Source of the DNA: an uncultured Acidobacteriota bacterium
GTDB taxonomy: Bacteria; Acidobacteriota; Terriglobia; UBA7540
Reading direction: 5' to 3'
NCBI GenBank assembly: GCA_963804995.1
Contig: CAWDSK010000001.1
Location: forward strand, 96,001-160,000
DNA: 64,000 bases
Made by a program: the position numbers and the translations under genes. Below are positions 25,482-45,095 of this stretch, piece after piece. How positions within the stretch are numbered: position 1 is the stretch's first letter; every line of letters starts with the position of its first letter. The notes under the pieces were generated by a model. That model had not been told where the DNA came from, did not search any database, and saw nothing but the letters and a program-made list of their open reading frames with translations.

Positions 25482-26627
25482 TCAATTCGTGTGCGGCGCC
25501 ACTTGCCCTTTTCCAGCAGTTCCCACGATGTGCGCCCAAATTCTCGCGAATAGGACTCGCCTAAGGTTGAATTGATATAACCAAACCCCAAAACAAGTGC
25601 CCAAGGTATTGGTGATGAGATCCGTTGTGCCGGAATCCCGCGTCGGCAGGAATGCCTGAAGAGATTCGATCGTAAGGCTGACCGCGAACCCTAGAAGGAT
25701 TGTGACCAGCGCCGGCCTTTTGATCCGTCCGGCCAGCGAAAAGTAGGCGCAGAAAAGGAACCCGAAGGGAGCAAAACCTGCAATGTTGACCAGCACGTCC
25801 TCCCAATAGCCCCAACTTGGACGGAATTCCTCCCAGAATGGCTCTAGGAAAACCTCCTTCACAACCAAATAGCGGTCCGGAATATACAAGTCGGTTGCCG
25901 AGGACACTTGGTTATGAATGACACGACCCGCCCGCTCATCAAATAGATAAAGCCCCACGGCACGCTCATTTTCGGAAACATCTGGTCGTCCCTTTTCTAT
26001 CCAGGTCGCGTAGTGGTGAAAGACCTGCGCCGGAGAGAGCTCTTGGTCATAAATGGCAAGCCCCCGCAAAAGACCAGACCAGCTATTATCTTTTATGGGC
26101 GAGTTGGCGATTACGAGTTCGCCGTCAAAATCCCTGCCGGAAAGCGGAAATTTGAGGGATGTTCGGCCCAGCGCACCATCAATATAGACTGACGTTCGCC
26201 CTCCGTTCGACGTGACCGTTATGAACAAGCGCTTTCCCCGATGGAAAACGTCATCAACATAGAGTCTGGTGGCACGAGTTCGATTGCGCTCGTCTCGAAT
26301 GTCACTTTGCAAGGCAAGGTCAGCAATGGATTGGCGCAGCGAAAACTGCCGAGGGCGCCTAGGAGCGTAGAAAGCAATGAGAGTGCTGGAGGCCGCAGTG
26401 AATTCCGGTTCTAACCAGACCTCTAAGCTGCACGGGGTGTCCTCTTGCGCATTCGGCGCCCGGAATTTGCTGGAACTCAGTATCGTCCCATGACGACCAA
26501 AGTGCAAACCGTTGCTACCATCGAGCCATGTCACCTGATTCCTGGGAGAGTGAAAGGGCCAGAGTCCTGCCACGAACAGCCCCCCTAAGACCAATCCACA
26601 AACCACGCCGAGAACCTTCGTGCTCAT
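25482..26627 (-). CDS. VanZ-family membrane protein with LamG/ConA-like periplasmic domain
   Basis: N-terminal GLWPF TM; VYIDG..IYDQELS lectin-like region; NIAGFAPFG, IESLQAFLPTR, DLITNTLG. Confidence 0.85.
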   Translation of the reverse strand: MSTKVLGVVCGLVLGGLFVAGLWPFHSPRNQVTWLDGSNGLHFGRHGTILSSSKFRAPNAQEDTPCSLEVWLEPEFTAASSTLIAFYAPRRPRQFSLRQSIADLALQSDIRDERNRTRATRLYVDDVFHRGKRLFITVTSNGGRTSVYIDGALGRTSLKFPLSGRDFDGELVIANSPIKDNSWSGLLRGLAIYDQELSPAQVFHHYATWIEKGRPDVSENERAVGLYLFDERAGRVIHNQVSSATDLYIPDRYLVVKEVFLEPFWEEFRPSWGYWEDVLVNIAGFAPFGFLFCAYFSLAGRIKRPALVTILLGFAVSLTIESLQAFLPTRDSGTTDLITNTLGTCFGVWLYQFNLRRVLFARIWAHIVGTAGKGQVAPHTN

Positions 26628-27016
26628 CACCTCCCGGTTAACCTCGCCGATCTTTTGTTGAATTCCGGAGGTAATGCCTTGCCAGCCGGCTGCGGCGTTG
26701 CCTTGTTTCTTTTGAATCATTCGGCTCACCTGCTAGCCCTCTTTCGCCAGACGATAACAGGCAATCTTCAATTCACTATAACGCAATTGTTTCCTAAACT
26801 GTGGCTCCGCCGACGTGAAAGCATTTTCTCCCTTATCGCGCCGCTGTCCAAGCAATCTCAATTCAAATTTGCTGGGCGAAAAGCTGAAGCAGACTCCTTG
26901 CCATCCGTCGGGCAGCAGATTCCAAAGTCTCTGTTACCACGATCAAATCCCTTCTGCGGCGGCTCGTTCGAGAGTACCTCCACTACTACAACTACGCTTC
27001 ATACTGCCCCACCTCG

Positions 27017-29092
27017 CTATGTAGTTGAAAAACCTAACTTCCTTTGTTCAGACGTTGATATTGCGGGTCCCCGATTGCTGCCACGGACACGCGCGACGAA
27101 CTTTGCTGCGGCTTCTGTCTCCAGTGCACGCTGGCTAAAAACCCAGGGCCCATCGGCAAGGGGATGATCGGCTTCAATCTCGCCTCGTTCCACCGCCAGG
27201 CGGAGCGTCCGGGAACTCACGCCTAAGATGCAGGCCGCTTCCGTCAGGTTCATCCATTCTTCCGACTCGCCCCTGTCGATCGAGTGACCAGGAATCGCGT
27301 GATGACTGCGTAGTGAGGTCACCCGTTCCCGCGTCCAGCGATTACCTCGCCCAGTCAGTAGACCGCTCCGATTTAGCGCGCCGGCCAGCTGATCATCCGA
27401 ACAGATCCGCGCCAATACTCTTACCGCCTCGACGGTCTCTTTCGAGGTGTGACTGCTATTCTGTCCACGCCGCCGCCGGGGTAAACGCAGGTCGGTGTGC
27501 ACGCCCCCCTTCCAGTGAATCATCAGAATGATTTCACCTGCCTGCGCATCCACATCGACGACGATCTCATGGATCAGCGTTCGTACAATGCGTTTTTTCA
27601 GGCGAATATCGGCTCCCGGGTCATTCCACACGGCTTCAAGGTCGGCCGCCAAGTTCTCGAATTCTTCCCGCGTGGGTGCAGCTGCCTGACCCTGGTCCTG
27701 GACGTGCTGTTCGATTCGTAGTTCGATTTCGTGCACTCGCTGCAGGGCTTGGTCCCAGCGACGCTCCAATTCTTCTGTCACCAAGCGGTTTTCCGGGTCC
27801 GCGGCATCGTACTGTTTCTGGGCACGCTGCGCGGCATAGCGTGCTGCCTCCAGATCTCGTCCCAGGGCCTCCAAGACCTCGTCGCGCTGACGCGCTTGTT
27901 CTTCGCTGGCCAGCACTGCCGCTTCTATCGCTGCCGGTTGCACGACCCGCACCACTTCCTTTGCCATGATTTCGTCAACCAGCCTTCCGCCAAAGGCGAT
28001 GCAACGCGCTTCGCCATTGTCCAGCCAGCCTCGACGGCACCCGTAGCGGAGCACGTCATGCTCGTTCCCCGTATACCAGACGGTCAGCTTACGACCACAG
28101 CGCCGGCAACGCAACAGACCGGCCAACAAAGCCGGACCACTTCGGACGGCGCCCGCTTGACCCCATCCGCGAACATTCTCCGCCATCGCCTGTTGAATCC
28201 GCTCAAACTCTTGCCAACTCACGTAACCTTCATGAGCGTTCGGAATCAACGCCAGCCACTGCTCCCGCGGTTTGCGCCGAGAACCTCGGCGGGGCTCGCC
28301 GTTTTCATAATGCAATGACAGTTCGGTCTTTCCGTACGCATAGGCACCGCCGTAGATCGGGTTGGCGAGCAAGCGGTGGATCGTGCCATAAGAAGGACGC
28401 TTCCAGCCTGTTTCACCTTGGGGGGTGTGCACCGGAAGCTGCAAGCCGTGTTCCAGGAACTACAACAAGGTCTGACGAACGCTCCCCAGCTCGAGAAATT
28501 TGTGAAACACCAGCAGGAGGGCTTGCTGTACCCGACGGTCGGGATCTTTTTCCAAACCTGACTCTTCGGTCTTGAGATAACCGACCGGTGCGGCCACCAG
28601 CAACTCGCCCCGGCGCGCCTTTTCGCGTCGTGCTTCCACCGAGCGCTGGCGCAGCAGGTCCAGTTCATATTCGTTCAGGCTCCCCTTCAGCCCCAACAGT
28701 AATCGATCGTTACTGTGCCGGGGCGAATAAACCGTCTCCTGGTCGATCAACACCGTATCGACGACACGGCACACTTCCACCAACTGCTGCCAGTCTCGGC
28801 TGTTGCGAGCGAAGCGGGAGACCTCTCGAGCGGCCACCGCTCCGACCTTGCCCAAACACACCTCCGCCACCATGCGTTCGAAACCGGCGCGCGTTACCGT
28901 CCCGGCCGCGGACCGGCCCAGGTCTTCATCCACGACCTCGATCTCGCGCCAGCCTAGCTGTGCGAGGCGTTCCTGCATGGCATACTGCAACTTCTGGCTT
29001 TCCAGGTTATGGCTGACCTGATAAGCCGACGACTGACGAACATACAGGATCGCCTTGCGTTCCAGATGCTGCGTTTTGATCTTGTCACTCAT
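27017..29092 (-). pseudogene. Large serine recombinase with an in-frame amber stop
   Basis: YVRQS catalytic motif, DEDLGRSA, EVSRFARN, LLANPIYGG, CRRC/YGC zinc ribbon, coiled coil; TAG at 28460-28462 (RQTLL*FLEHG) between two in-frame halves. Confidence 0.9.
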
Positions 29093-29282
29093 TCCGCGCC
29101 TCCTTCTGATGGCCGGAGGCGAGGACCGGGCTTAAGTGCTCGCGCAGCAGTTGCGCCAGCAGCTTCAGGGTCTTCTGCTGGATTTCCTGAGGCAGTCTCT
29201 GCCAGGACGGACTCAGGTGGGGCGGATGAAACAATTTGAATTGATTGGCTGTCGGTCGGCTCTCTGACGTTCGCATCAGCAC
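29085..29282 (-). CDS. Small accessory ORF upstream of the recombinase
   Basis: 65 aa, helical (WQRLPQEIQQKTLKLLAQLLREH); overlaps the recombinase start, in the same position as 41143-41448 in element 2. Confidence 0.5.
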   Translation of the reverse strand: MLMRTSESRPTANQFKLFHPPHLSPSWQRLPQEIQQKTLKLLAQLLREHLSPVLASGHQKEARNE

Positions 29283-29618
29283 CTCCTGGGACTAGCAAGG
29301 AATGATGCTGAGCTTGTAGCACAACCTCTGGGCTGACCTGGGGGGCACCTCGAAGCAGGTCCTTCAAATCCAGCAATGCTTCGCAGGACACCGTGGGAAC
29401 TGCCATCTTACGCATCCGACAGCAGGTTGCAGAATCAAACATCCATTGCGGCACGTCCAAGCACCGAGCATCCGGGCTCTCCTCGATGCCGCACCGATAT
29501 ACCGCTTGCCTATTCTTGACGAGAGTTTCATAAGTCCAGACCGAACGACCGTACCACGGATGCCACGGGTAAAAGACTTCTCGAGATTCAGTACTATGGG
29601 TGTTGAGTTGTCGAGTTG
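29089..29618 (-). CDS. Startless body of att-split HP-motif (DUF5372-like) gene of element 1
   Basis: Open from the element edge: TRQLNTHSTESREVFYPWHPWYGR..LDVPQWMFD..; its ATG is at 27002 at the other end; its stop overlaps the recombinase ATG (ATGA). Confidence 0.75.
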
Positions 29619-29974
29619 TACCACGAAGATCGCGTCCATGACGCCCTGAACAAAGATACGCCTACCGGCCGTTTTCTCGAACGGAGGCGACCGATGCAGC
29701 AAGAGTTCTGGCTTACCTCGCGTCGGTGGCCTCCATCACCGCTATCAATGGCGGACAGCCGCCTGGAGTGCATACGCGATCAAGCCGTTGCCCATCTGTC
29801 GCCGTCTTCTTCCTGTGGAGTCAAAGCCAAGCCTGTCAGAACTCCATCAAAAACTGCCGAAACTCCGTCTGCGCGTGCGCCCTCGTCATGTGGACAAAGG
29901 AGGGCGCGAGGTGGCGGAGAGATCACCCCTTTTCTCAGGCGGCTTATTTTTGAGGACACACAAGTTGCCTGCTC

Positions 29975-30863: not shown

Positions 30864-31279
30864 TGAGTGGTCTGGGTTTTTTGTACCACTTTCAGAGTGA
30901 GTTTTCGGCTCCTTCGGGGCCTGTCAGGTTGCGGCTAGCCGCGACCTGACAGGCGAATTCGGTCGGCGTCCGCTCTCCGAGAGCCCGGTGAGGACGGCTC
31001 TCATTGTACTCCCTCCTCCAAGCCTCGATGATCGCTTTGGCCTCACTCAGCGTCATGAACCAATGGGCGTTCAGGCATTCCCGTCGAAAGGTGCCGTTGA
31101 AGGATTCCACGTGGGCATTGTCGGTGAGCTTGCCCGGCCTGGAAAAGTCGATCCGCACGCCGCTCTGATATGCCCACAAGTCCATCGCCTGACTGGAAAA
31201 TTCGCAGCCGTTGTCGCAGAACAGCAGCTTCGGCGCTCCCCGTTGCGCCTGGATCCGGTTCAACACCCTTACGACGGCC
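30864..31279 (-). mobile_element. IS3-family transposase 3' fragment with one terminal IR
   Basis: CDNG.EF, SRPGK.TDNAHVESFNG.FRRECLN, WRREYN..RPH; terminus TGAGTGGTCTGGG at 30864; truncated at 31279. Confidence 0.85.
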
Positions 31280-31795
31280 TGTCCGTGGCGGATTGCTAAT
31301 TTGCCTGGAATTCCGCGAATTTTCAGTTTCTTGCTACGATACGGATATGCGCGATCTCGTGATCCTTTTCATCCATCTCATCACGACCGTCGCCCGACTT
31401 GCAAGTCCCGGCGGCGTCCGTTCCGTAGTTGCCGAGTCCGTCCTCGTCAAACATCAACTGCTGATCCTCAATCGCTCGCGCCAGCGCGCTCCCCATCTCC
31501 GCCTATCGGATCGCACCGTCGCCGGTTGGTGCGCTCTGTTTATGCGGCCGTCCCGGCTGATCCGTTCGGCCATCGTTCTGAAACCTTCGACTCTCTTGAG
31601 CCTCCAGCAGGCCCTGAGGAACCGAAAGTATCGCCGGCTCTTCTCATCCGAGCGCAAGGGAAGGCCCGGCCCAAAAGGACCCAACAAAGAACTCATTGAA
31701 GCCGTTGTCCAAATGAAGCAGCGCAATCCCACCTGGGGCTGTCCGCGAATTGCTCAACAGATTGCCTGGGCCTTCGACATCCCCATCGACAAAGA

Positions 31796-33740
31796 GGTTG
31801 TGTCAAGAATTTTTGTCCCCTAAGGCGATAACCCATTGAATTGCTGGGAGAAACTGGATTTTCTGCTTTCTCCCCCCTCCGGGTGCGCTTGACTAGGACG
31901 TTGGCGTGAGGTGCGGTCGGGTTGCCGCGCTTAAGTTCCTGGACGTAACTGCGTCGTGGGGCTTGACGGCAAACAAAAAGGGCGGTGAAGTCTCTCTTTC
32001 CCAATCCACCTTGTAGGGAACCCGCCAGGTTCCCGAGAGACTCACCGCCATGGGCAAGATACCACGATTGGTGCTTTGGCTCTGTAGGAAATTTACCCGC
32101 CAGGATTTGCAGGAACTGGTCGAGCAACTGCAAGAGATTCTCGCCGGGCGCCAGCCCGAGCCTCAACCCCGCGACGACTTTCGCCAGCAGCATCCACACT
32201 ATCGCGACTTCTACGTTGACCCTCTGGCTCCCTTGACCCAGCCGCCTCCGGCACCTCGCACCTGGAACTGGCGGCAGTTGCTGGCTCAGTACCAGCGCCA
32301 GCACCGCCGACCGTTGGCTCCGATTCAGCGTTCTGGCGCCCACCCCCTGCCTCCCACTTGTCGTTGTGCCCACTGCGGCGCACCGCGCGACTTCCTCTAC
32401 CTCAACGATGGCCGTCACGCCCGCCAACTGCGCTGCAAAGTCTGTGGCCGGCTGTCGCAAATCGCTCGTCGTCATCGCCCGACGAAAACTCCTTACTGGT
32501 GCCCCTACTGCGGCAGCTCCCTCTTCCGCTGGAAGCAGCGTGCCGATTGCACCATCTACAAATGTCCTGGCGAGCGTTGTCCTCACTATCTCCAGAAGCA
32601 GCAAGCCCTGCACTGGAACGAGAAGTTGCTCCAGAAGCTGCGCCGCACGCAGTTCAAGCTGCGTTACCAGTATCGCGAATACCACTTTCAACCCGCCCAA
32701 CTGGCCCCCACCGCTCCCGATCCGCCCACCGTCGACCTCACCCGTCTGCATCGTTCTTCCGATGTCTTGGGCCTGGTGTTGGCCTTCCACATCTCTTTCG
32801 CCCTCTCCGCCCGCAAGACCGCCCAGGTCCTGCGGCAAGTCTTCGGCGTGCCTCTCAGCTACCAGTCCGTTCTCAACTATGCCCAGGCCGCCGCTTACTA
32901 CTGCCACGCCTTCAACCTCCGCTACAAAGCCCCGCTCAGCGCCACCGCCACCGGCGACGAGACTTATATTCGCGTCGCGGGGAAGCACCCATACACGTTC
33001 TTCTTTCTCGATCCCCAAGGGCATCGCATCACGTCCTATCACGTGGCGCCGGAGCGCGATGCCTTGGCCGCCACCGTGGCCCTGGGCGAGGCCGCGCGCA
33101 CCTTGCCCGAAGATCAGGCCCTGCGTTTCATCACCGACGGCAACCCCGCTTATCAGGCCGGCGTACACTTCCTCAACGCTCACCGCACCGCTTCCCAACC
33201 TCCCCATACCTTGCGGCAGGTCATCGGCCTGGAAAACCTCGACGCGGTCTCCAAGGAATTCCGCCCCTTCAAGCAACTCATCGAACGTCTCAATCGCACC
33301 TACAAATACCACGTCCGCCCGGCTTGCGGCTTTGCCACGCGCAACGGCGCCGTGGCCCTCACCACCCTGTTCGTCACCCACTACAACTTCCTTCGCCCCC
33401 ATCTGGCCCTGGGCTACCGCGTACCCATCCCCTTGCCGGAGTTGAGTTCCCTCACCACCTTGCAAGGCCAGTGGAACAAGATCCTCGCTCTCGCCCTGGC
33501 GGCCTGAGCCCGGTGGGAGTAAACTTCGCGGTGGCCGGGGCGGAGGATAGGGCTCCGCAGGGATGCGACCTGAGCGCCGACCCCGGGGCCGAGATCGGTC
33601 GGGAGCGAGCCCCACTCGCTCCCCCAGTCCAGACCCATCTTGGCACCAAAGCGATAAATCCTGGGGGTCTGGGGGCAAATCCCCCAGCTCTACCCACCTC
33701 CCGACCCTTCATTACCTTTCATAAAACTTTTGACAGAACC
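31796..33740 (+). mobile_element. 1945-bp IS with GG ends and 8-bp target duplication (IS6/IS1-like)
   Basis: IRs GGTTGTGTCAAGAATTTT / GGTTCTGTCAAAAGTTTT; GACAAAGA duplicated at 31788-31795 and 33741-33748. Confidence 0.92.
32050..33507 (+). CDS. DDE transposase with N-terminal zinc ribbons
   Basis: CAHC, CKVC, CPYC, CPGERC; GDETY, ITDGNPAY, IERLNRTYK, YNFLRPH. Confidence 0.9.
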   Translation: MGKIPRLVLWLCRKFTRQDLQELVEQLQEILAGRQPEPQPRDDFRQQHPHYRDFYVDPLAPLTQPPPAPRTWNWRQLLAQYQRQHRRPLAPIQRSGAHPLPPTCRCAHCGAPRDFLYLNDGRHARQLRCKVCGRLSQIARRHRPTKTPYWCPYCGSSLFRWKQRADCTIYKCPGERCPHYLQKQQALHWNEKLLQKLRRTQFKLRYQYREYHFQPAQLAPTAPDPPTVDLTRLHRSSDVLGLVLAFHISFALSARKTAQVLRQVFGVPLSYQSVLNYAQAAAYYCHAFNLRYKAPLSATATGDETYIRVAGKHPYTFFFLDPQGHRITSYHVAPERDALAATVALGEAARTLPEDQALRFITDGNPAYQAGVHFLNAHRTASQPPHTLRQVIGLENLDAVSKEFRPFKQLIERLNRTYKYHVRPACGFATRNGAVALTTLFVTHYNFLRPHLALGYRVPIPLPELSSLTTLQGQWNKILALALAA

Positions 33741-34556
33741 GACAAAGACGTGGTTCGAAGGATTCTCGCCCGTCACTATCGACCGGGACAGGACTCTGGT
33801 GGTCCATCTCCGACAACGATCCGCTTTATCGTTTTCATCAATGGCAAGCCAACCTGCGAATCCTGGATGTGGCCGAAATCAAGACCGTGCCCTACGTTCC
33901 TTTGTCCCATCCCTTTGTGGAGCGGTTGGTCGGCACCCTCCGCCGAGAGTGTTTGGATCGTACGCTGTTCTGGACAACCGCCGATCTCAAGAGCAAGCTG
34001 CTCGATTTCAAAAGCTATTTTAACCACCATCGCACGCATAGCGCACGGGCGGGGCGACCGCCAGAGGACGCACCGCCTCGGCCGGTCGCCAACCTCCAAT
34101 CTTATCGATGGGAATCTCACTGCCGGGGACTGTATCAAACCCCGATAGCTGCCTGATTCCCAAGAAACCTAAAACACCGGCCTCGTGGCATTGATGGCGT
34201 CACGTTCGACGCATTGCGATGCCGAAGTGTAGAAGCAACTGTCTAGGGTCTCGGTGAAGATGGATGAAACGGCGGTCAGATCCGCGTGCCCGCGGCATAA
34301 CAAGATTGCGAAATGCAGAAAACCTCAGGAAACTAGAAATTCGCCAGGTCCAAGTGACCACCAGAGCAAGATGAGGAGTTGCACCGCACTGGGGTTGTTT
34401 TCGAGTAGGTTTGAGGCGAGTAACATGCATCGTTCGAACGACACGGATATGAATCTGAAAGGAGTTGATGAGTGGCGGAAAGTCGCCTACCAAATTCGTC
34501 TTTCTGACTCGAAGCAGCTATAGATTGGCAACTGCCCTTGTGGGATTCGGAACGCT

Positions 34557-39584: not shown

Positions 39585-40165
39585 CATACGATAACCGGCA
39601 TAGGTATTACCGGCCCGCTTAGCCTCCCATCCTGAGGGGGGCATGGCGGAGCGAAGTATCTCGCTTGGAGGGCTGGTCGCGGTAGGGATACCGGTTGCCC
39701 GGTACCCTGTCCTTCGCCAATACACGATAATGCTGCATTCGCTGCAAAAGTGGCCGCCCAAAGACCGCAGTCTCCGCTTGTCGCTCTGTGCCTTGGTCTC
39801 TGGTCCGAGAGGTCATCGGGCTGGTCGCGCCTTTGCGCCGACAAGCACCCGCCTGGCGCGAGACAGGTTGCAGTTTTCGAGGTAAGGGAACGGCAGGCCG
39901 ATGCTGCCCTCGGTCAGGCAGCGCGCCGTTCGTAGCGATGGTGCAGGCCACCGACCTGCGGGATCTCCACCATCTCTCCGGCCTCCGGTCCCTGCACGAC
40001 CCGAGGGGTCGGAGCGTCCTTGGCTAAGGAGAGGTGAGTTCTTGAACCCAGATAGTAATCGAAATAACTTTTCAGGATTCGTCGCAGATGCTTCTCTCCC
40101 AGCACGATCACGTGATCCACGTACTCACGTCGGATGGAGCCCACCAGCCTTTCCGCAAACGGATT

Positions 40166-40458
40166 GGATCAGGTCGTCAACTACACACCATAGAGACTAT
40201 TCAAAACGACGTTTCCGAGTAACTCACCCTTACCATCCACTGTTCCAACGTGAATTCGAATGGGTGGACTACCGCCAGAACTGGGGGGAGGACCGAGTGT
40301 ATTTCTACGACGAAGGAGGCCAGTTGACCTCGCTACCGGCGCGGTGGACGAGTGTCGTGGGGGAGGACCCATTCGTGGTCATAGGGGGAGGCCGCTCGTA
40401 TTTTCGCGTTGAGGACCTGATTGAATTGGTGCGTTTGGTGGAGGGTTTACGGTCCTGA
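40166..40458 (+). CDS. Startless body of att-split DUF5372-like gene of element 2
   Basis: IRSSTTHH..FRVTHPYHPLF..NWGEDRV..SLPARWT..DPF..GRSYFRVEDL; no ATG before the motif inside the element; its ATG is at 43528. Confidence 0.8.
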
Positions 40459-40608
40459 AGCCCCGGAAGGTCTGTAAAGGGAATTACGCCGTTTGTGTTA
40501 AAGGGATTATGTCGGAGCTTGAGCCGAAGTCCAGAGTTTTCGGTGGGTGTGTGAGTGCAATATCCGCTTATTGTGCAACACAAATTCGGGTCGGAGGATA
40601 GAAAAGGC

Positions 40609-40637
40609 TTGACAGGGAGCAAGAGAATGTATATAAT
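40609..40637 (+). promoter_or_regulatory. Consensus sigma70 promoter
   Basis: TTGACA (40609-14), 17-nt spacer, TATAAT (40632-37); 41 nt upstream of the HTH gene. Confidence 0.9.
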
Positions 40638-40678
40638 TAACATTACACTCGTTTGCCGGATTTGCTCCGGAGGAGCCC

Positions 40679-41146
40679 ATGTCCCCTTCCTCACGCCACG
40701 ATGCCAAGCGCCATATCCTGCGCTCCCAAGGTACCTTGAATCCCCGCCCGCAGGAGGTGGCCCACGCCCTGTTCCAGGACAGCGACTTCTTCAATCCCCG
40801 GGACTTGCTGCAGGTCAAGTACGAGATGCTGCGCCAAGTGAGGGTCGAAAACCAAGCGGTGAGCCAAGCGGCGGAGGCTTTTGGTTTCTCCAGACCCTCC
40901 TTCTACCTCGCCCAGGCGGGCTTCGTAGCCAGGGGACTCGCAGGATTGATTCCCCAGAAACGGGGACCTCGGCACGCCCACAAGCTCACGGCCGAGGTAA
41001 TGGAGTTCGTCCGGCAGGCCCGAGCTGCCGAACCCTCCTTGCGGAGCGAGGAACTGGCGGCCCGGGTGAAGAAAGCCTTCCGTCTACGGGTCCATCCTCG
41101 CAGCTTGGAGCGCCGGCTTCGGCAGCAGCAAAAAAAACGACGTTGA
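40679..41146 (+). CDS. Helix-turn-helix protein of LSR element 2
   Basis: FFNPRDLLQVKYEMLR; VSQAAEAFGFSRPSFY HTH; KRGPR..HKL; VHPRSLER; RBS GGAGGAG. Confidence 0.88.
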   Translation: MSPSSRHDAKRHILRSQGTLNPRPQEVAHALFQDSDFFNPRDLLQVKYEMLRQVRVENQAVSQAAEAFGFSRPSFYLAQAGFVARGLAGLIPQKRGPRHAHKLTAEVMEFVRQARAAEPSLRSEELAARVKKAFRLRVHPRSLERRLRQQQKKRR

Positions 41147-41448
41147 GCGACCCTCCCGTTGCTCCCCTGATGGCCCAGGAGGGGATCGTAAACCAATATG
41201 AGGAACTCCGGCGACAAGTGCGGGGTGAGTTAGGCGGCAGGCGCGGAGCCTTGGGCCTGGCGCTGTTTATTCGCCAGGGGATGAAAGGCTGGATGGAAGC
41301 CTGGTCCCACTGCCTGCCGGGTGGGATTCCGATGAAACCCCAGAATCCGTCCGGCCCTGAGGAGAGGGTTCCTCTCGATCTGCACACGGAAGTGGTTACG
41401 ATTCTGGCGAGCATGGTACTTCACAGTCGGCCGGAGGTGAGAGGATGA
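41143..41448 (+). CDS. Small accessory ORF (possible -1 frameshift extension of the HTH protein)
   Basis: YEELRRQ..GLALFIRQGMKGW..ILASMVL; TTGA overlap upstream and ATGA overlap with the recombinase. Confidence 0.7.
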   Translation: MSDPPVAPLMAQEGIVNQYEELRRQVRGELGGRRGALGLALFIRQGMKGWMEAWSHCLPGGIPMKPQNPSGPEERVPLDLHTEVVTILASMVLHSRPEVRG

Positions 41449-43538
41449 GAACCGAAATGCCGCAGAAGGTTCAAGCCCACCATTTGAAACGCGACGCCTA
41501 CCTGTATATCCGGCAGTCCACGCTTCGGCAGGTCTTTGAGAATACCGAGAGCACCCAGCGCCAGTACGCGTTACGCCAACAGGCCGTGGCCCTGGGCTGG
41601 CCTTTGGAACGGATCATCGTGATCGACAACGATCAAGGCCAGTCGGGAGCTTCGGCGGTAGACCGAGAGGGATTTCAAAGGTTGGTGAGTGAAGTGGGGA
41701 TGGGGCGAGCAGGGATCGTTCTGGGTCTCGAGGTGTCGCGCCTGGCGCGCAACTCCACGGACTGGCATCGACTGCTGGAGATCTGCGCGCTCACCGACAC
41801 GCTCATTTTGGATGAAGATGGCATCTACGACCCGGCGCACTTTAATGACCGCCTGCTGTTGGGGCTGAAAGGCACGATGAGCGAGGCGGAACTGCACGTG
41901 CTGCGAGCCCGGTTGCGAGGCGGAATCCTCAGCAAAGCTCGGCGCGGTGAGTTGGAGATCCCACCTCCGGTCGGCTTGGTCTATAACGGCTCGGGGCAAC
42001 TCGTTCTCGATCCGGACCAGCAGGTGCAACAGGGCCTTCGACTCTTGTTTGAAACCTTCCGTCGTACGGGATCCGCCCTGGCCACGGTGAAGGCCTTTCG
42101 CCAGCAGGGGCTGCTGTTTCCCCGCCGCCTGCGGGCGGGGCCCCACCAAGGAGAGTTGGTATGGGTGGAACTTGTTCACAGCCATGTCCTGCGCGTTTTG
42201 CACAATCCTCGGTATGCCGGGGCCTACGTCTTTGGCCGGAGTCAGACGCGCAAGAAGCTGGAGGGTGGCGTGACGGTGAAGTGGTTGCCTCGCGAGGAGT
42301 GGGACACTTGCCTTCCTGGGGCCCATGCGGGTTACCTCTCCTGGGAAGAATATGAGAGCAATCAGCGGCGGTTACGGGAATCCGCGCAAGCTTGGGGTCC
42401 CGACCGTCGTCAAAGCCCTCCGCGGGAAGGTCCAGCGCTTCTGCAGGGATTAGTGATCTGTGGCCGCTGTGGGAATCGGATGACCGTGCGTTATCATGTT
42501 CACCGGTCACGCCTGGCCCCCCATTATGTGTGTCAGCGGTACGGTATCGAACACGCTCAAACCATCTGCCAGACGGTTCCTGGAGCGGGTATCGACCAGG
42601 CCATCGGGGAACTGCTGATCGAAGTGGTCACTCCGTTAGCCCTGGAGGTGGCGCTGAGCGTGCAGCAAGAACTTCAGTCTCGTTGGGAAGAAGCGGATCG
42701 GTTGCGCCAAACCCAAGTCGAGCGCGCCCGGTATGAGGCGGAGCTGGCCGAGCGGCGCTACTTGCGTTGCGATCCCGACAACCGGCTCGTGGCGGATTCG
42801 CTCGAGGCCGACTGGAACCACAAGCTGCGTGCTCTGGGAGAGGCTCAGCAAGAGTATCAACGTCAACGTCAGGTCGACCGTGGGTTGTGTCGGGAAGAGG
42901 AACGCGCTCAGATTTTTGCCCTGGCCACAGACTTCCCTCGGCTGTGGCGCGATGCGAAAACGCCACATCGAGAACGGAAGCGTATGGTCCGCCTTCTATT
43001 GGAAGACGTCACGTTGACCCGCAACCATGAGATCACGCTTCAGATCCGCTTCAAGGGGGGAGCTACAAAGACCCTGCATTTGCCCATCCCCCTCAATGCC
43101 TGGAAACAGCGCACCACCAAGCCGGAGGTGGTGGCGGAGATCGACCGGCTCCTGGATCAACGTACCGATCGGCAGATCGCTAGCCTGCTGAATGAACGCG
43201 GCTGGCTCTCGGGCGAAGGCAGGCCCTTCAGCCCTCACATCGTCGCGCGCATACGGCGTAACTATGCCTTGAAGAGCGGTTACACTCGCCTACGCGGAGC
43301 CGGCCTGTTGACCCTGCAAGAGATGGCTAAGCTGCTCGGCATCTCCACCGGGTGGGTGAAAGTCTGGCGGGACCATGGTCTGTTAAGAGCTCAAGCCTAC
43401 AACGAGAAAAACGAGTGTTTATATGAACACCCCGGCGATGATCCGCCGCGCAAGATGCAAGGGACGAAGCTCGCTGCCAGGCAGCGATTCTTCGAGGACC
43501 CCTCGAATCATACCAATGAGGTGCAGTATGAAGCATAA
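41445..43538 (+). CDS. Large serine recombinase, apparently intact
   Basis: YIRQS, DNDQGQSG, EVSRLARN, LHNPRYAG, CGRC/YVC zinc ribbon, coiled coil, C-terminal HTH; 697 aa. Confidence 0.95.
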   Translation: MRTEMPQKVQAHHLKRDAYLYIRQSTLRQVFENTESTQRQYALRQQAVALGWPLERIIVIDNDQGQSGASAVDREGFQRLVSEVGMGRAGIVLGLEVSRLARNSTDWHRLLEICALTDTLILDEDGIYDPAHFNDRLLLGLKGTMSEAELHVLRARLRGGILSKARRGELEIPPPVGLVYNGSGQLVLDPDQQVQQGLRLLFETFRRTGSALATVKAFRQQGLLFPRRLRAGPHQGELVWVELVHSHVLRVLHNPRYAGAYVFGRSQTRKKLEGGVTVKWLPREEWDTCLPGAHAGYLSWEEYESNQRRLRESAQAWGPDRRQSPPREGPALLQGLVICGRCGNRMTVRYHVHRSRLAPHYVCQRYGIEHAQTICQTVPGAGIDQAIGELLIEVVTPLALEVALSVQQELQSRWEEADRLRQTQVERARYEAELAERRYLRCDPDNRLVADSLEADWNHKLRALGEAQQEYQRQRQVDRGLCREEERAQIFALATDFPRLWRDAKTPHRERKRMVRLLLEDVTLTRNHEITLQIRFKGGATKTLHLPIPLNAWKQRTTKPEVVAEIDRLLDQRTDRQIASLLNERGWLSGEGRPFSPHIVARIRRNYALKSGYTRLRGAGLLTLQEMAKLLGISTGWVKVWRDHGLLRAQAYNEKNECLYEHPGDDPPRKMQGTKLAARQRFFEDPSNHTNEVQYEA

Positions 43539-44391
43539 GCCTTTTGCCAAGGGCTCTGCGGCGCGGTCAGGACTTCGGTGATGTCCATGTCGCTGAGAAG
43601 ATTGCGGAAACCTTCCCCGTAGATCTGGTCCCGGTCTCGGATCAAATAGCGTGGCGCCGTGTCTTCGGGGAACGCTTCCAGGATTTGCTGAGTGGCCCAA
43701 GCCGCCGTCGGATGCTCGGTCACGTTGAAATGCACGACACGCCGGCGATGATGAGCCAGCACGACAAAAACGAATAACACTCGAAAACTGACCGTGGGCA
43801 CCGTGAAGAAGTCAACCGAGACCAAACCCTGAACATGGTTATTCAAGAAGGCCTTCCAAGTCTGGGAAGGTGGCTTCCGGCACTTGGGCATCAATCGGGA
43901 AACCGTGCGCTCGGAAACCTCCATTCCCAGCTTGAGCAGTTCCCCGTGAATGCGAGGGGCGCCCCAATACGGGTTCGCGGTCGCCATCTGCTTGACCAGG
44001 GCTCGGACTTCTGAACTGAGTTGTGGTCGACCTGAACTTCCCCGCTGCGAGATCCTCGCCCAATAGATTCGGAAGGCCTTTTGCTGCCAGCCGACAACAG
44101 TATCACCGTTCACCACATGCAAGGCCTGTCGCCAAGGGGCCCAGACTCGGGAAAGCACCACCCAAAACAATCGATCTTTCCTCTTCAGTCTCGGCACGCC
44201 CTTCCTTCTCTTTAGCACTCCCAGCTGTTGTCGCAAAGCCAGATTTTCCAAGGCCAAGTCACGGCGTTCTCTAAGAGCTGCAATTATGAAAATGACCAGC
44301 CATCGTAATGTCTCGATCATGGGTTGGAGTGTGGAGGTAACGACCTGAATAATCAACGGATTTCGAGCCGATGGAGTTTTGGCGATGGACA

Positions 44392-45095
44392 GCTGGCTCG
44401 AACGAGCGACCTGGGGAAAGTATCTCCTGATCCCGCCTGACCAGGGGCCGGACGCCCTGGGCGACAGCAATCTCTTGGCCCTCGCGAGCCGTATCACTAG
44501 CCGGTACTACTTCGGCCTCGGCACCGCCGCAGCGCACTATGGGCTGACAACTCAGCACCGCAACGTGATCTTTGTTGTAACGCCGCAGCGCCCGCGCGCG
44601 CGCACCGTCGGAGAATCGCGGGTCCGGATCGTCAATCAGGCGGAGAGCAAGTTCTTCGGATTTGAGCCGGTCGACGTGCTCGGCTACAAGGTGATGATCT
44701 CGGACCGCGAAAAGACTGCCATCGACTGTATTGATCACCCACCACTCGCCGGAGGCGTGGGGGAGGCCGCCACCATTCTTGCCACCGCGACTCGCCGCTT
44801 CGACTGGAACAAAGCTGCTGATTACCTCGAACGGATAGGCACCGGCGCGCTGGTGCGCCGATTCGGCTGGCTGGCCGACCACGTCAAGGCGGATATTCCG
44901 CCCTCCACACGCGAGCGCCTGCTCAGGTTGGCGGCGCGAAGCCGCAAAACGTGGCTCGGCGCCGCTCCCGAACACGCTATGCCGGGCGCAATCGGTTATG
45001 ACGAGACATGGCGCCTGTTCGTGAATGTTTCGCGCGAAGAGCTGCAAGGCAGCGTCGGCCTCGGACAGCGGAAAACGGTCAGGGGAGGTGCGTAG
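44392..45095 (+). pseudogene. AbiEi-like antitoxin/regulator, 5'-truncated
   Basis: WLER..GKYL, TAAAHYGLT, KFFG, ISDREKTAIDC, RRFGWL; begins directly at the IS end. Confidence 0.75.

Follow-up and report, generated by a model that had tools for sequence, protein, structure and literature searches.

A gene cut by the attachment site of a small serine-recombinase element and putatively assembled upon excision, identified in an uncultured Acidobacteriota bacterium

In the 64,000-nt stretch of DNA from an uncultured Acidobacteriota bacterium analysed here (assembly GCA_963804995.1, contig CAWDSK010000001.1, positions 96,001 to 160,000; hereafter the window), we identified element 1, a mobile element with a large serine recombinase (LSR) and a second gene, orfA, which is cut by the attachment (att) site. 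In the integrated state, a Shine-Dalgarno (SD)-like sequence and an ATG at the right end run into the flank, and a start-less orfA body stands at the left end. Excision would join the two ends and thereby assemble orfA, and two database proteins with the joined N-terminus are consistent with such assembly. We consider this split-gene design almost certainly real. The family to which element 1 belongs consists of elements of insertion sequence (IS) size that an LSR moves into conserved motifs within the genes of other mobile elements.

On the minus strand, the LSR stop codon ends at 27017 and is followed 14 nt on by ATG 27002, which stands behind GAGGTGGGG and, in the integrated state, reads into the flank to give a 19-aa peptide (27002-26943); these coordinates and their arithmetic, given in a preliminary description of this DNA, hold. 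The corresponding dead-end peptides of relatives are 5-199 aa long. The same description had joined the two pieces through a shared GTA to 29618, and the resulting 181-codon OrfA, the end of which overlaps the LSR start (29092) in an ATGA, was reproduced from the sequence in frame. The core is a 2-nt TA (26988-26987 and 29620-29619), identical at both junctions and without target duplication. It is separated from the LSR stop by 29 nt, and the crossover falls inside the fifth codon of orfA. The earlier term of a two-gene ring needs correction, as the ring has three genes, with the conserved orfB overlapping the final third of the 181-codon orfA frame. In plasmid relatives, orfB is annotated as a hypothetical protein, and neither OrfA nor OrfB of element 1 has a match in Pfam and NCBIfam. 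There is no replication gene on the circle.

Seen in the window alone, the join would be a weak observation, because dozens of 3-nt matches in the window also give in-frame joins; it is made firm by other evidence. The ends are fixed by the palindrome AGTTG-TA-CAACT formed at the joined-end junction, the rebuilt target frame, other genome copies, contig ends and the in-frame joins of relatives. The TA/TA join of the flanks restores an open transposase-like frame, LRRLVREYLHY followed by YHEDRVHDALNKDTP. Two further partial copies are present in the genome (C5, 88%, and C6, 98.9%), with an identical left end; among the three copies, only one has the right end. The similarity of C5 and C6 to the window extends 14 nt past TA, where the bases vary like a conserved target, and the left boundary of 29633 suggested by blastn was therefore rejected as target similarity. 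Furthermore, contigs of three relatives (L041, L054, L103) end exactly at ...TTGTA. A join three bases outward (26984) is in frame as well but loses the Tyr of the target motif and spoils the palindrome, and it was rejected.

The start-less frame was aligned and used to collect relatives, which comprise 34 loci from genomes and, of 211 metagenome matches, the best 80. The left end was identified in 108 of these 114, and 36 carry both ends; L107 has lost its right end. In 35 of the 36 both-ended relatives, SD-like bases, ATG, 11 nt and the core follow one another and the ends join in frame to give 178-182 aa, the joined frame terminating at +4 of the LSR start in 34 and at +1 in one. L125 has a TG core at both ends, and L174 has GTG at -14 followed by ATG and is still in frame, an arrangement more in keeping with a start codon than with a fixed DNA motif. 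Distant clades, located via the recombinase and not via OrfA, with ends in multi-copy genomes determined by copy comparison, gave a comparable picture: in 23 of 24 copies the start codon precedes the core by 14 nt and the joined ends are in frame, the exception being L169 (the count excludes L147, L148, L153, L155, L163 and L166). Their cores are TA, TT, AA, CC and AC, and recombinase identity to the element 1 LSR drops to 34%.

One such element, element 2, lies in the same window; its recombinase is intact in three of its four copies, and its target matches rve and rve_3 of Pfam. The LSRs of elements 1 and 2 are 35% identical and their OrfAs are homologous, and the two therefore represent one inherited design and not the two independent origins that the preliminary description had suggested. 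Its view that a conserved mechanism is a better explanation than chance is borne out, as the two products are related and the junction is kept in frame across both close and distant relatives.

The relatedness of the 181-aa and 102-aa products, also put forward earlier, was evident from profile comparison. Element 1 OrfA itself does not match the Pfam model of DUF5372 (PF17342), with two of 150 alignment members matching weakly (best E 0.074). Its profile, which matches 2,336 cluster representatives, aligned with that of the DUF5372 clade with a probability of 85% and an E of 6.1e-6 over 85 columns, placing YPWHPW on THP(F/Y)HPL, in line with the parallel drawn previously between PWHPW and PYHPL. 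In a search by ESM Atlas features, 29 of 30 matches were DUF5372 (best 0.94), a result to be taken as a lead, the recognition value being under the tool's mark. In AlphaFold2 models of both OrfAs (pLDDT 79 and 82), four strands and two helices follow one another in a common order. Structural matches were SH3/KOW barrels of a generic kind, the best having Z values of 5.3 (rmsd 2.5, 49 aligned) and 5.5 (rmsd 3.3, 54 aligned), and Foldseek gave no match at E 0.001. The motifs WHPW and PQWMFD are invariant, and the domain is mildly basic (median net charge +4). Taken together, profiles and models indicate that element 1 OrfA is a remote DUF5372 homologue with a predicted SH3-like barrel.

Selection on OrfA was evaluated by pooled pairwise ratios of nonsynonymous to synonymous substitution (dN/dS) among 51 open-frame relatives. 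The values were 0.21, 0.29 and 0.37 in residues 9-92, 0.78 in residues 93-112 and 0.96 in the tail (113-176), the orfB frame over the orfA tail having 0.53. Thus, the constrained part is about the first 92 residues, and the OrfA protein that matters would be roughly this part, as dN/dS is low only there. A start codon between the core and the HPW motif is present in only five of 56 relatives. The orfA frame is open through orfB in 51 of 56, where synonymous resampling gives an expected mean of 0.26, the observed count being inflated by the relatedness of the loci and their ranking by full-length match; the open tail may be a hint of translational coupling. In 45 of 56 relatives, CATAAT or CATAGT stands 22 nt inward from the left end (window 29593-29598) and doubles as a His codon, the first 12 codons having low GC content at third positions. 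This motif, not observed in other clades, is possibly a -10 box paired with the junction TGTACA, or a recombinase-binding sequence. A scan of the integrated sequence found no promoter inside element 1.

Two database proteins are the strongest indication that the joined form occurs. P0078 (ENA) starts with MKRRC in the exact joined register, and so does P0309 (JGI), a protein of 180 aa that is 50% identical to the window OrfA over 174 residues and came from a search seeded with the P0078 N-terminus and hence biased to it (motif in 44 of 60). ATG at -14 occurs in none of 81 distinct flanks, and the simplest reading is that both genes were called on contigs spanning a junction. Among the 139 of 156 database relatives that have the motif, N-termini are otherwise scattered and flank-derived, 2-179 residues ahead of the motif, and P0332, the cluster mate of P0309, has a flank-type N-terminus. 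P0076, which has the joined register but a different sequence, was not counted.

A complex was modelled from the intact LSR of relative L066 (90% identical to that of the window) and the L066 OrfA domain, with a 25-row alignment for each. The complex scored 0.71 compared with 0.00 for the best of three controls; 116 of the 157 solved complexes reach this mark, as do two of the 215 mismatched pairs. At least 82% of contacts agreed between runs, and the partner pLDDT was at least 71. In the model, the WHPW motif and last helix of OrfA contact LSR residues 329-334, 379-402 and 473-534, which, by our reading of the domain layout, would correspond to the zinc ribbon and both coiled-coil ends, and most of the barrel is left free. 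OrfA is thus predicted to bind the LSR at the zinc-ribbon domain and the base of the coiled coil. Directionality factors bind LSRs at the DBD2/coiled-coil junction (PMC12286644). We consider it probable that OrfA is an LSR-binding cofactor.

From these results, the following scheme may be drawn. On the circle, orfA would stand 14 nt downstream of the LSR gene, in the position of the final gene in an orfB-LSR-orfA operon; the orfA tail extends to the ATGA overlap with the LSR start, which may couple their translation. The LSR would excise the element alone, and OrfA, predicted to dock on it at the site used by directionality factors, would then set it for re-integration or prevent re-excision. 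If OrfA exists only after excision, it cannot trigger the first excision; a switch toward integration is favoured in that OrfA would be made after excision and a circle lacking any replication gene has to insert again. Such a state switch, in which LSR alone excises and LSR with OrfA is set for re-integration or barred from re-excision, is slightly favoured in our assessment, and the chances that the effect of OrfA favours integration are about even. The most specific version can be offered only tentatively, at somewhat under even chances: serine-integrase directionality would be reversed, with excision as the default and an excision-assembled SH3-fold integration factor turning the LSR to integration from the directionality-factor site, in a family parasitic on conserved motifs of IS3, IS481 and IS21 transposases and of group II intron reverse transcriptases.

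Several points weigh against this interpretation. The 35 in-frame relatives amount to 25 distinct junctions in 11 clusters and are not 35 independent tests, and the patterns used for finding ends set the register, such that the proportion of 35 in 36 is partly by construction. Junction DNA, the search for which had been proposed as a check in the preliminary description, was not found in the fetched loci, viral contigs, the genome itself, 401 genomes of the phylum or 29 of the genus. In sequencing runs, of which eight matched at a word share of 0.05-0.08, with no RNA run among those listed, and four had their contigs examined, no end-to-end joint was seen in contigs of relatives among the 15 of 42 joints listed. 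The contigs behind P0078 and P0309 could be tandem copies instead of circles. An in-frame start codon is contained in 53 of 76 distinct left flanks, in 13 with an SD-like motif, and the orfA body could be translated in some integrated copies. As for the complex, the model is of a relative and not of the window copy, a solved LSR-directionality-factor fusion exists (PDB 9dxd), such that likeness to it may contribute to the modelled site, and a test of att-arm spacing for inverted directionality gave a best p of 0.06. Finally, all three genome copies are broken, by a stop in the window, by frameshift and truncation in C5 and by truncation in C6, and the window copy is probably inactive.

Among other explanations, OrfA could be an ordinary excision factor, a rare first circle driving the excision of sister copies and blocking immediate re-insertion in a positive feedback. 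The modelled site is the canonical one, and known factors at that site promote excision (PMC12286644). Nevertheless, a circle without a replication gene would be lost if its integration were blocked, the many copies at new sites imply that circles do integrate, and OrfB, made in the integrated state, is a separate candidate for the excision factor; we consider this explanation unlikely. It is quite unlikely as well that OrfA is a target-capture or activating subunit that allows the LSR to accept very degenerate targets without any switch of direction. SH3- and chromo-like domains serve target capture for some integrases, and the SH3/KOW-like fold with its mildly positive charge, the freedom of most of the barrel in the modelled interface and a target arm nearly without consensus would accord with such a role, whereas the fold matches are generic and the interface, judging by residue numbers, is at the coiled-coil base and not on the DNA-facing surface.

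A further explanation holds that translation itself matters, in that ribosomes starting at the junction reach the ATGA and raise LSR synthesis on the circle, as a translational counterpart of junction promoters. The open orfA frame over orfB, with tail residues that are unconstrained, could be read in this way; however, the excess is inflated as described above, purifying selection acts on residues 9-92, where WHPW and PQWMFD are invariant, and OrfA of the DUF5372 clade ends about 1 kb before the LSR. As the sole explanation it is very unlikely, and translational coupling may exist in addition to the state switch. We give least credence, with hardly any probability, to the explanation that ATG and the SD-like bases are a recombinase-binding sequence only and that OrfA is made while integrated, starting in the flank or internally. 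Protein-DNA geometry could account for the constant spacing of 14 nt, and the start codons in 53 flanks fit this explanation; these starts are scattered, however, from 6 to 69 codons out, 23 of the 76 flanks and that of the window have none, the SD spacer varies, and junction-type proteins exist.

Element 1 appears to sit antisense in a relic of an IS3/IS481-type transposase, at a Y-x-x-x-R-x-H motif. The 39-aa distal target piece alone has no Pfam match, and the family assignment rests on resemblance to the targets of relatives; by blastn, the target in the window occurs nowhere else in the genome in intact form. Among 81 distinct left flanks, the target-frame motif has Y/H at position 1 in 77, R at position 5 in 74 and H at position 7 in 76, with one target arm almost without consensus, and one annotated plasmid copy is inserted in an IS3 transposase. 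Rebuilt targets of the distant clades contain SPQAKGRIER, NPYDNA, KGKVERAI and PWQNPYVER, which we take to be DDE transposase motifs, and also YDADLKGYFD and LGIPTVRDR, presumably motifs of group II intron reverse transcriptases. Distant copies in L162, L164, L165, L170 (G018, G001) and L167 (G005) are inserted in two different group II intron reverse transcriptase motifs, L167 in sense orientation; L151-L161 (G052) are eleven copies of two TT-core elements in the same helix of several DDE transposase families; and the target of L168, an AC-core relative, resembles a different mobile-element gene (AQYHPLGY motif). At seven loci (L074, L086, L091, L095, L110, L131, L132), the left and right flanks apparently come from different transposases and are probably assembly chimeras of a repeated element.

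The element family was found in 237 plasmid records, mostly of rhizobia, and no OrfA relative was found in the phage collection. In a Cupriavidus plasmid copy (L149:2261-4937), an 892-codon open frame takes in both the orfA body and the recombinase, and orfB is apparently frameshifted; a 1-nt indel is the probable cause. In octopine Ti plasmids (L171:4500, L172:4000), an unannotated left-end relic of the element 1 type immediately follows the octopine dehydrogenase gene.

The features of the window are listed in Table 1. The LSR gene is intact in 29 of 35 relatives. Relatives read Trp at codon 211, as does every contig covering 28461 in four sequencing runs, these contigs being relatives from other strains. 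orfB would be made in the integrated state and is a candidate excision factor. Elsewhere in the window, integrase-core transposase fragments are dense at 30892-34156 and 39914-44497, and include an intact DDE gene of 485 codons (32050-33507); a stretch of 33 nt near 39675-39707 occurs many times in the genome; and a neighbouring gene with Laminin_G_3 and VanZ-like domains (25482-26729) has no visible tie to element 1.

Table 1. Positions of element 1, its genes, its target and element 2 in the window
Feature	Position	Strand	Remarks
Element 1, LSR element, 2,634 bp core to core	26987..29620	-	Relatives mostly 2,625-2,634 bp; target frame rebuilt
attL, TA crossover core, left junction	29619..29620	-	Three genome copies begin here; left end in 108/114 relatives
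attR, TA crossover core, right junction	26987..26988	-	Right-end similarity of relatives ends at TTGTA; target frame rebuilt
SD-like GAGGTGGGG for OrfA	27007..27015	-	SD-like motif with variable spacer in all clades; putative function
orfA 5' piece, ATG and about four codons	26987..27002	-	ATG in 25/25 distinct junctions, five codons without stop
Start-less orfA body, 176 codons	29089..29619	-	Predicted SH3-like barrel and helix in residues 9-92, then unconstrained tail
orfB, 63 codons, own SD (AGGAGG)	29085..29276	-	+1 frame within orfA tail; motif in 49/56 non-redundant relatives
LSR, 691 codons; Resolvase, Recombinase, Zn ribbon, C-terminal HTH_17	27017..29092	-	Interrupted by TAG at codon 211
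Premature TAG in LSR	28460..28462	-	Mutation or assembly error
Distal target half, 3' end of IS3/IS481-type integrase-core transposase relic (HEDRVHDALNKDTP ... PRVGGLHHRY)	29621..29775	+	Likeness to targets of relatives
Proximal target half of relic (LRRLVREYLHY)	26930..26986	+	Rebuilt target frame
Element 2, 3,380 bp, TT core	40164..43543	+	Joined DUF5372 OrfA of 102 aa; inserted in integrase-core transposase between PWQ and NP; four genome copies

These findings give DUF5372 and its sister family, which is invisible to Pfam, a testable role, and they explain the mis-annotation of orfA, as gene callers take starts from the flank or skip the gene; 23 of the 30 plasmid matches listed have no annotated feature beneath, in a gene table with known gaps. 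As a serine-integrase cofactor, an OrfA that sets direction would follow a logic opposite to that of the known ones, in a 2.6-kb system that lends itself to reconstruction in E. coli, and LSRs of this family used as tools might require a hidden OrfA partner for integration. The element family also represents a widespread parasite of other mobile elements. In the literature searched, which did not extend to most subscription papers, to ISfinder or to the supplements of PMC10083194, we found no description of an LSR accessory gene whose SD and start are gained at the junction, no paper on DUF5372 and nothing relevant on NGRIS-4/y4bA/y4bD; the element family may have been described before. The main text of PMC10083194 does not mention "IS3" or "insertion sequence".

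In mycobacteriophage BPs, attP lies inside the repressor gene, and integration removes a C-terminal tag, the repressor being active when integrated (PMC4557955). Element 1 is alike in that att lies inside an element gene and the integration state alters the protein made; in contrast, its accessory gene loses SD and start on integration and is whole only when excised. The "suicidal" integrases of archaeal SSV1, pTN3 and pT26-2 are tyrosine recombinases that split their own gene (PMC8371274), and their integration likewise leaves 5' and 3' gene pieces at the two ends, whereas the serine recombinase gene of element 1 stays whole, the core not being inside it, and a predicted partner is split. In Tn4451/Tn4453 TnpX, ICEclc Pcir and ICEKp1 P3'end, joined ends form a promoter for the recombinase (PMC13023037, PMC5704250). 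Tn4451 has an LSR and 2-bp cores in common with element 1, as well as a circular intermediate and expression turned on by joined ends, both of which element 1 would share, but the element 1 joint would supply a translation start and reading frame for another protein, and element 1 has no conjugation genes. Like the LSR directionality factors, such as that of SPbeta (PMC12286644), OrfA is a small protein, modelled at the DBD2/coiled-coil junction of its LSR; the known factors, however, trigger excision and are encoded whole when integrated, whereas OrfA is whole only after excision. Multi-targeting LSRs (Cp36) are similar in that one clade uses many degenerate sites, but the Cp36 clade is marked by DUF4368 (PMC10083194), which gave no Pfam match in the element 1 LSR at E 0.1. 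As for DUF5372/Y4bD-Y4pK (PF17342), element 2 OrfA is a member and element 1 OrfA a remote homologue in the same position, which differs in failing the Pfam model and in its long tail overlapping orfB. Genes cut by att and promoters made at junctions are thus already known, and element 1 represents a variant of att-gated genes.

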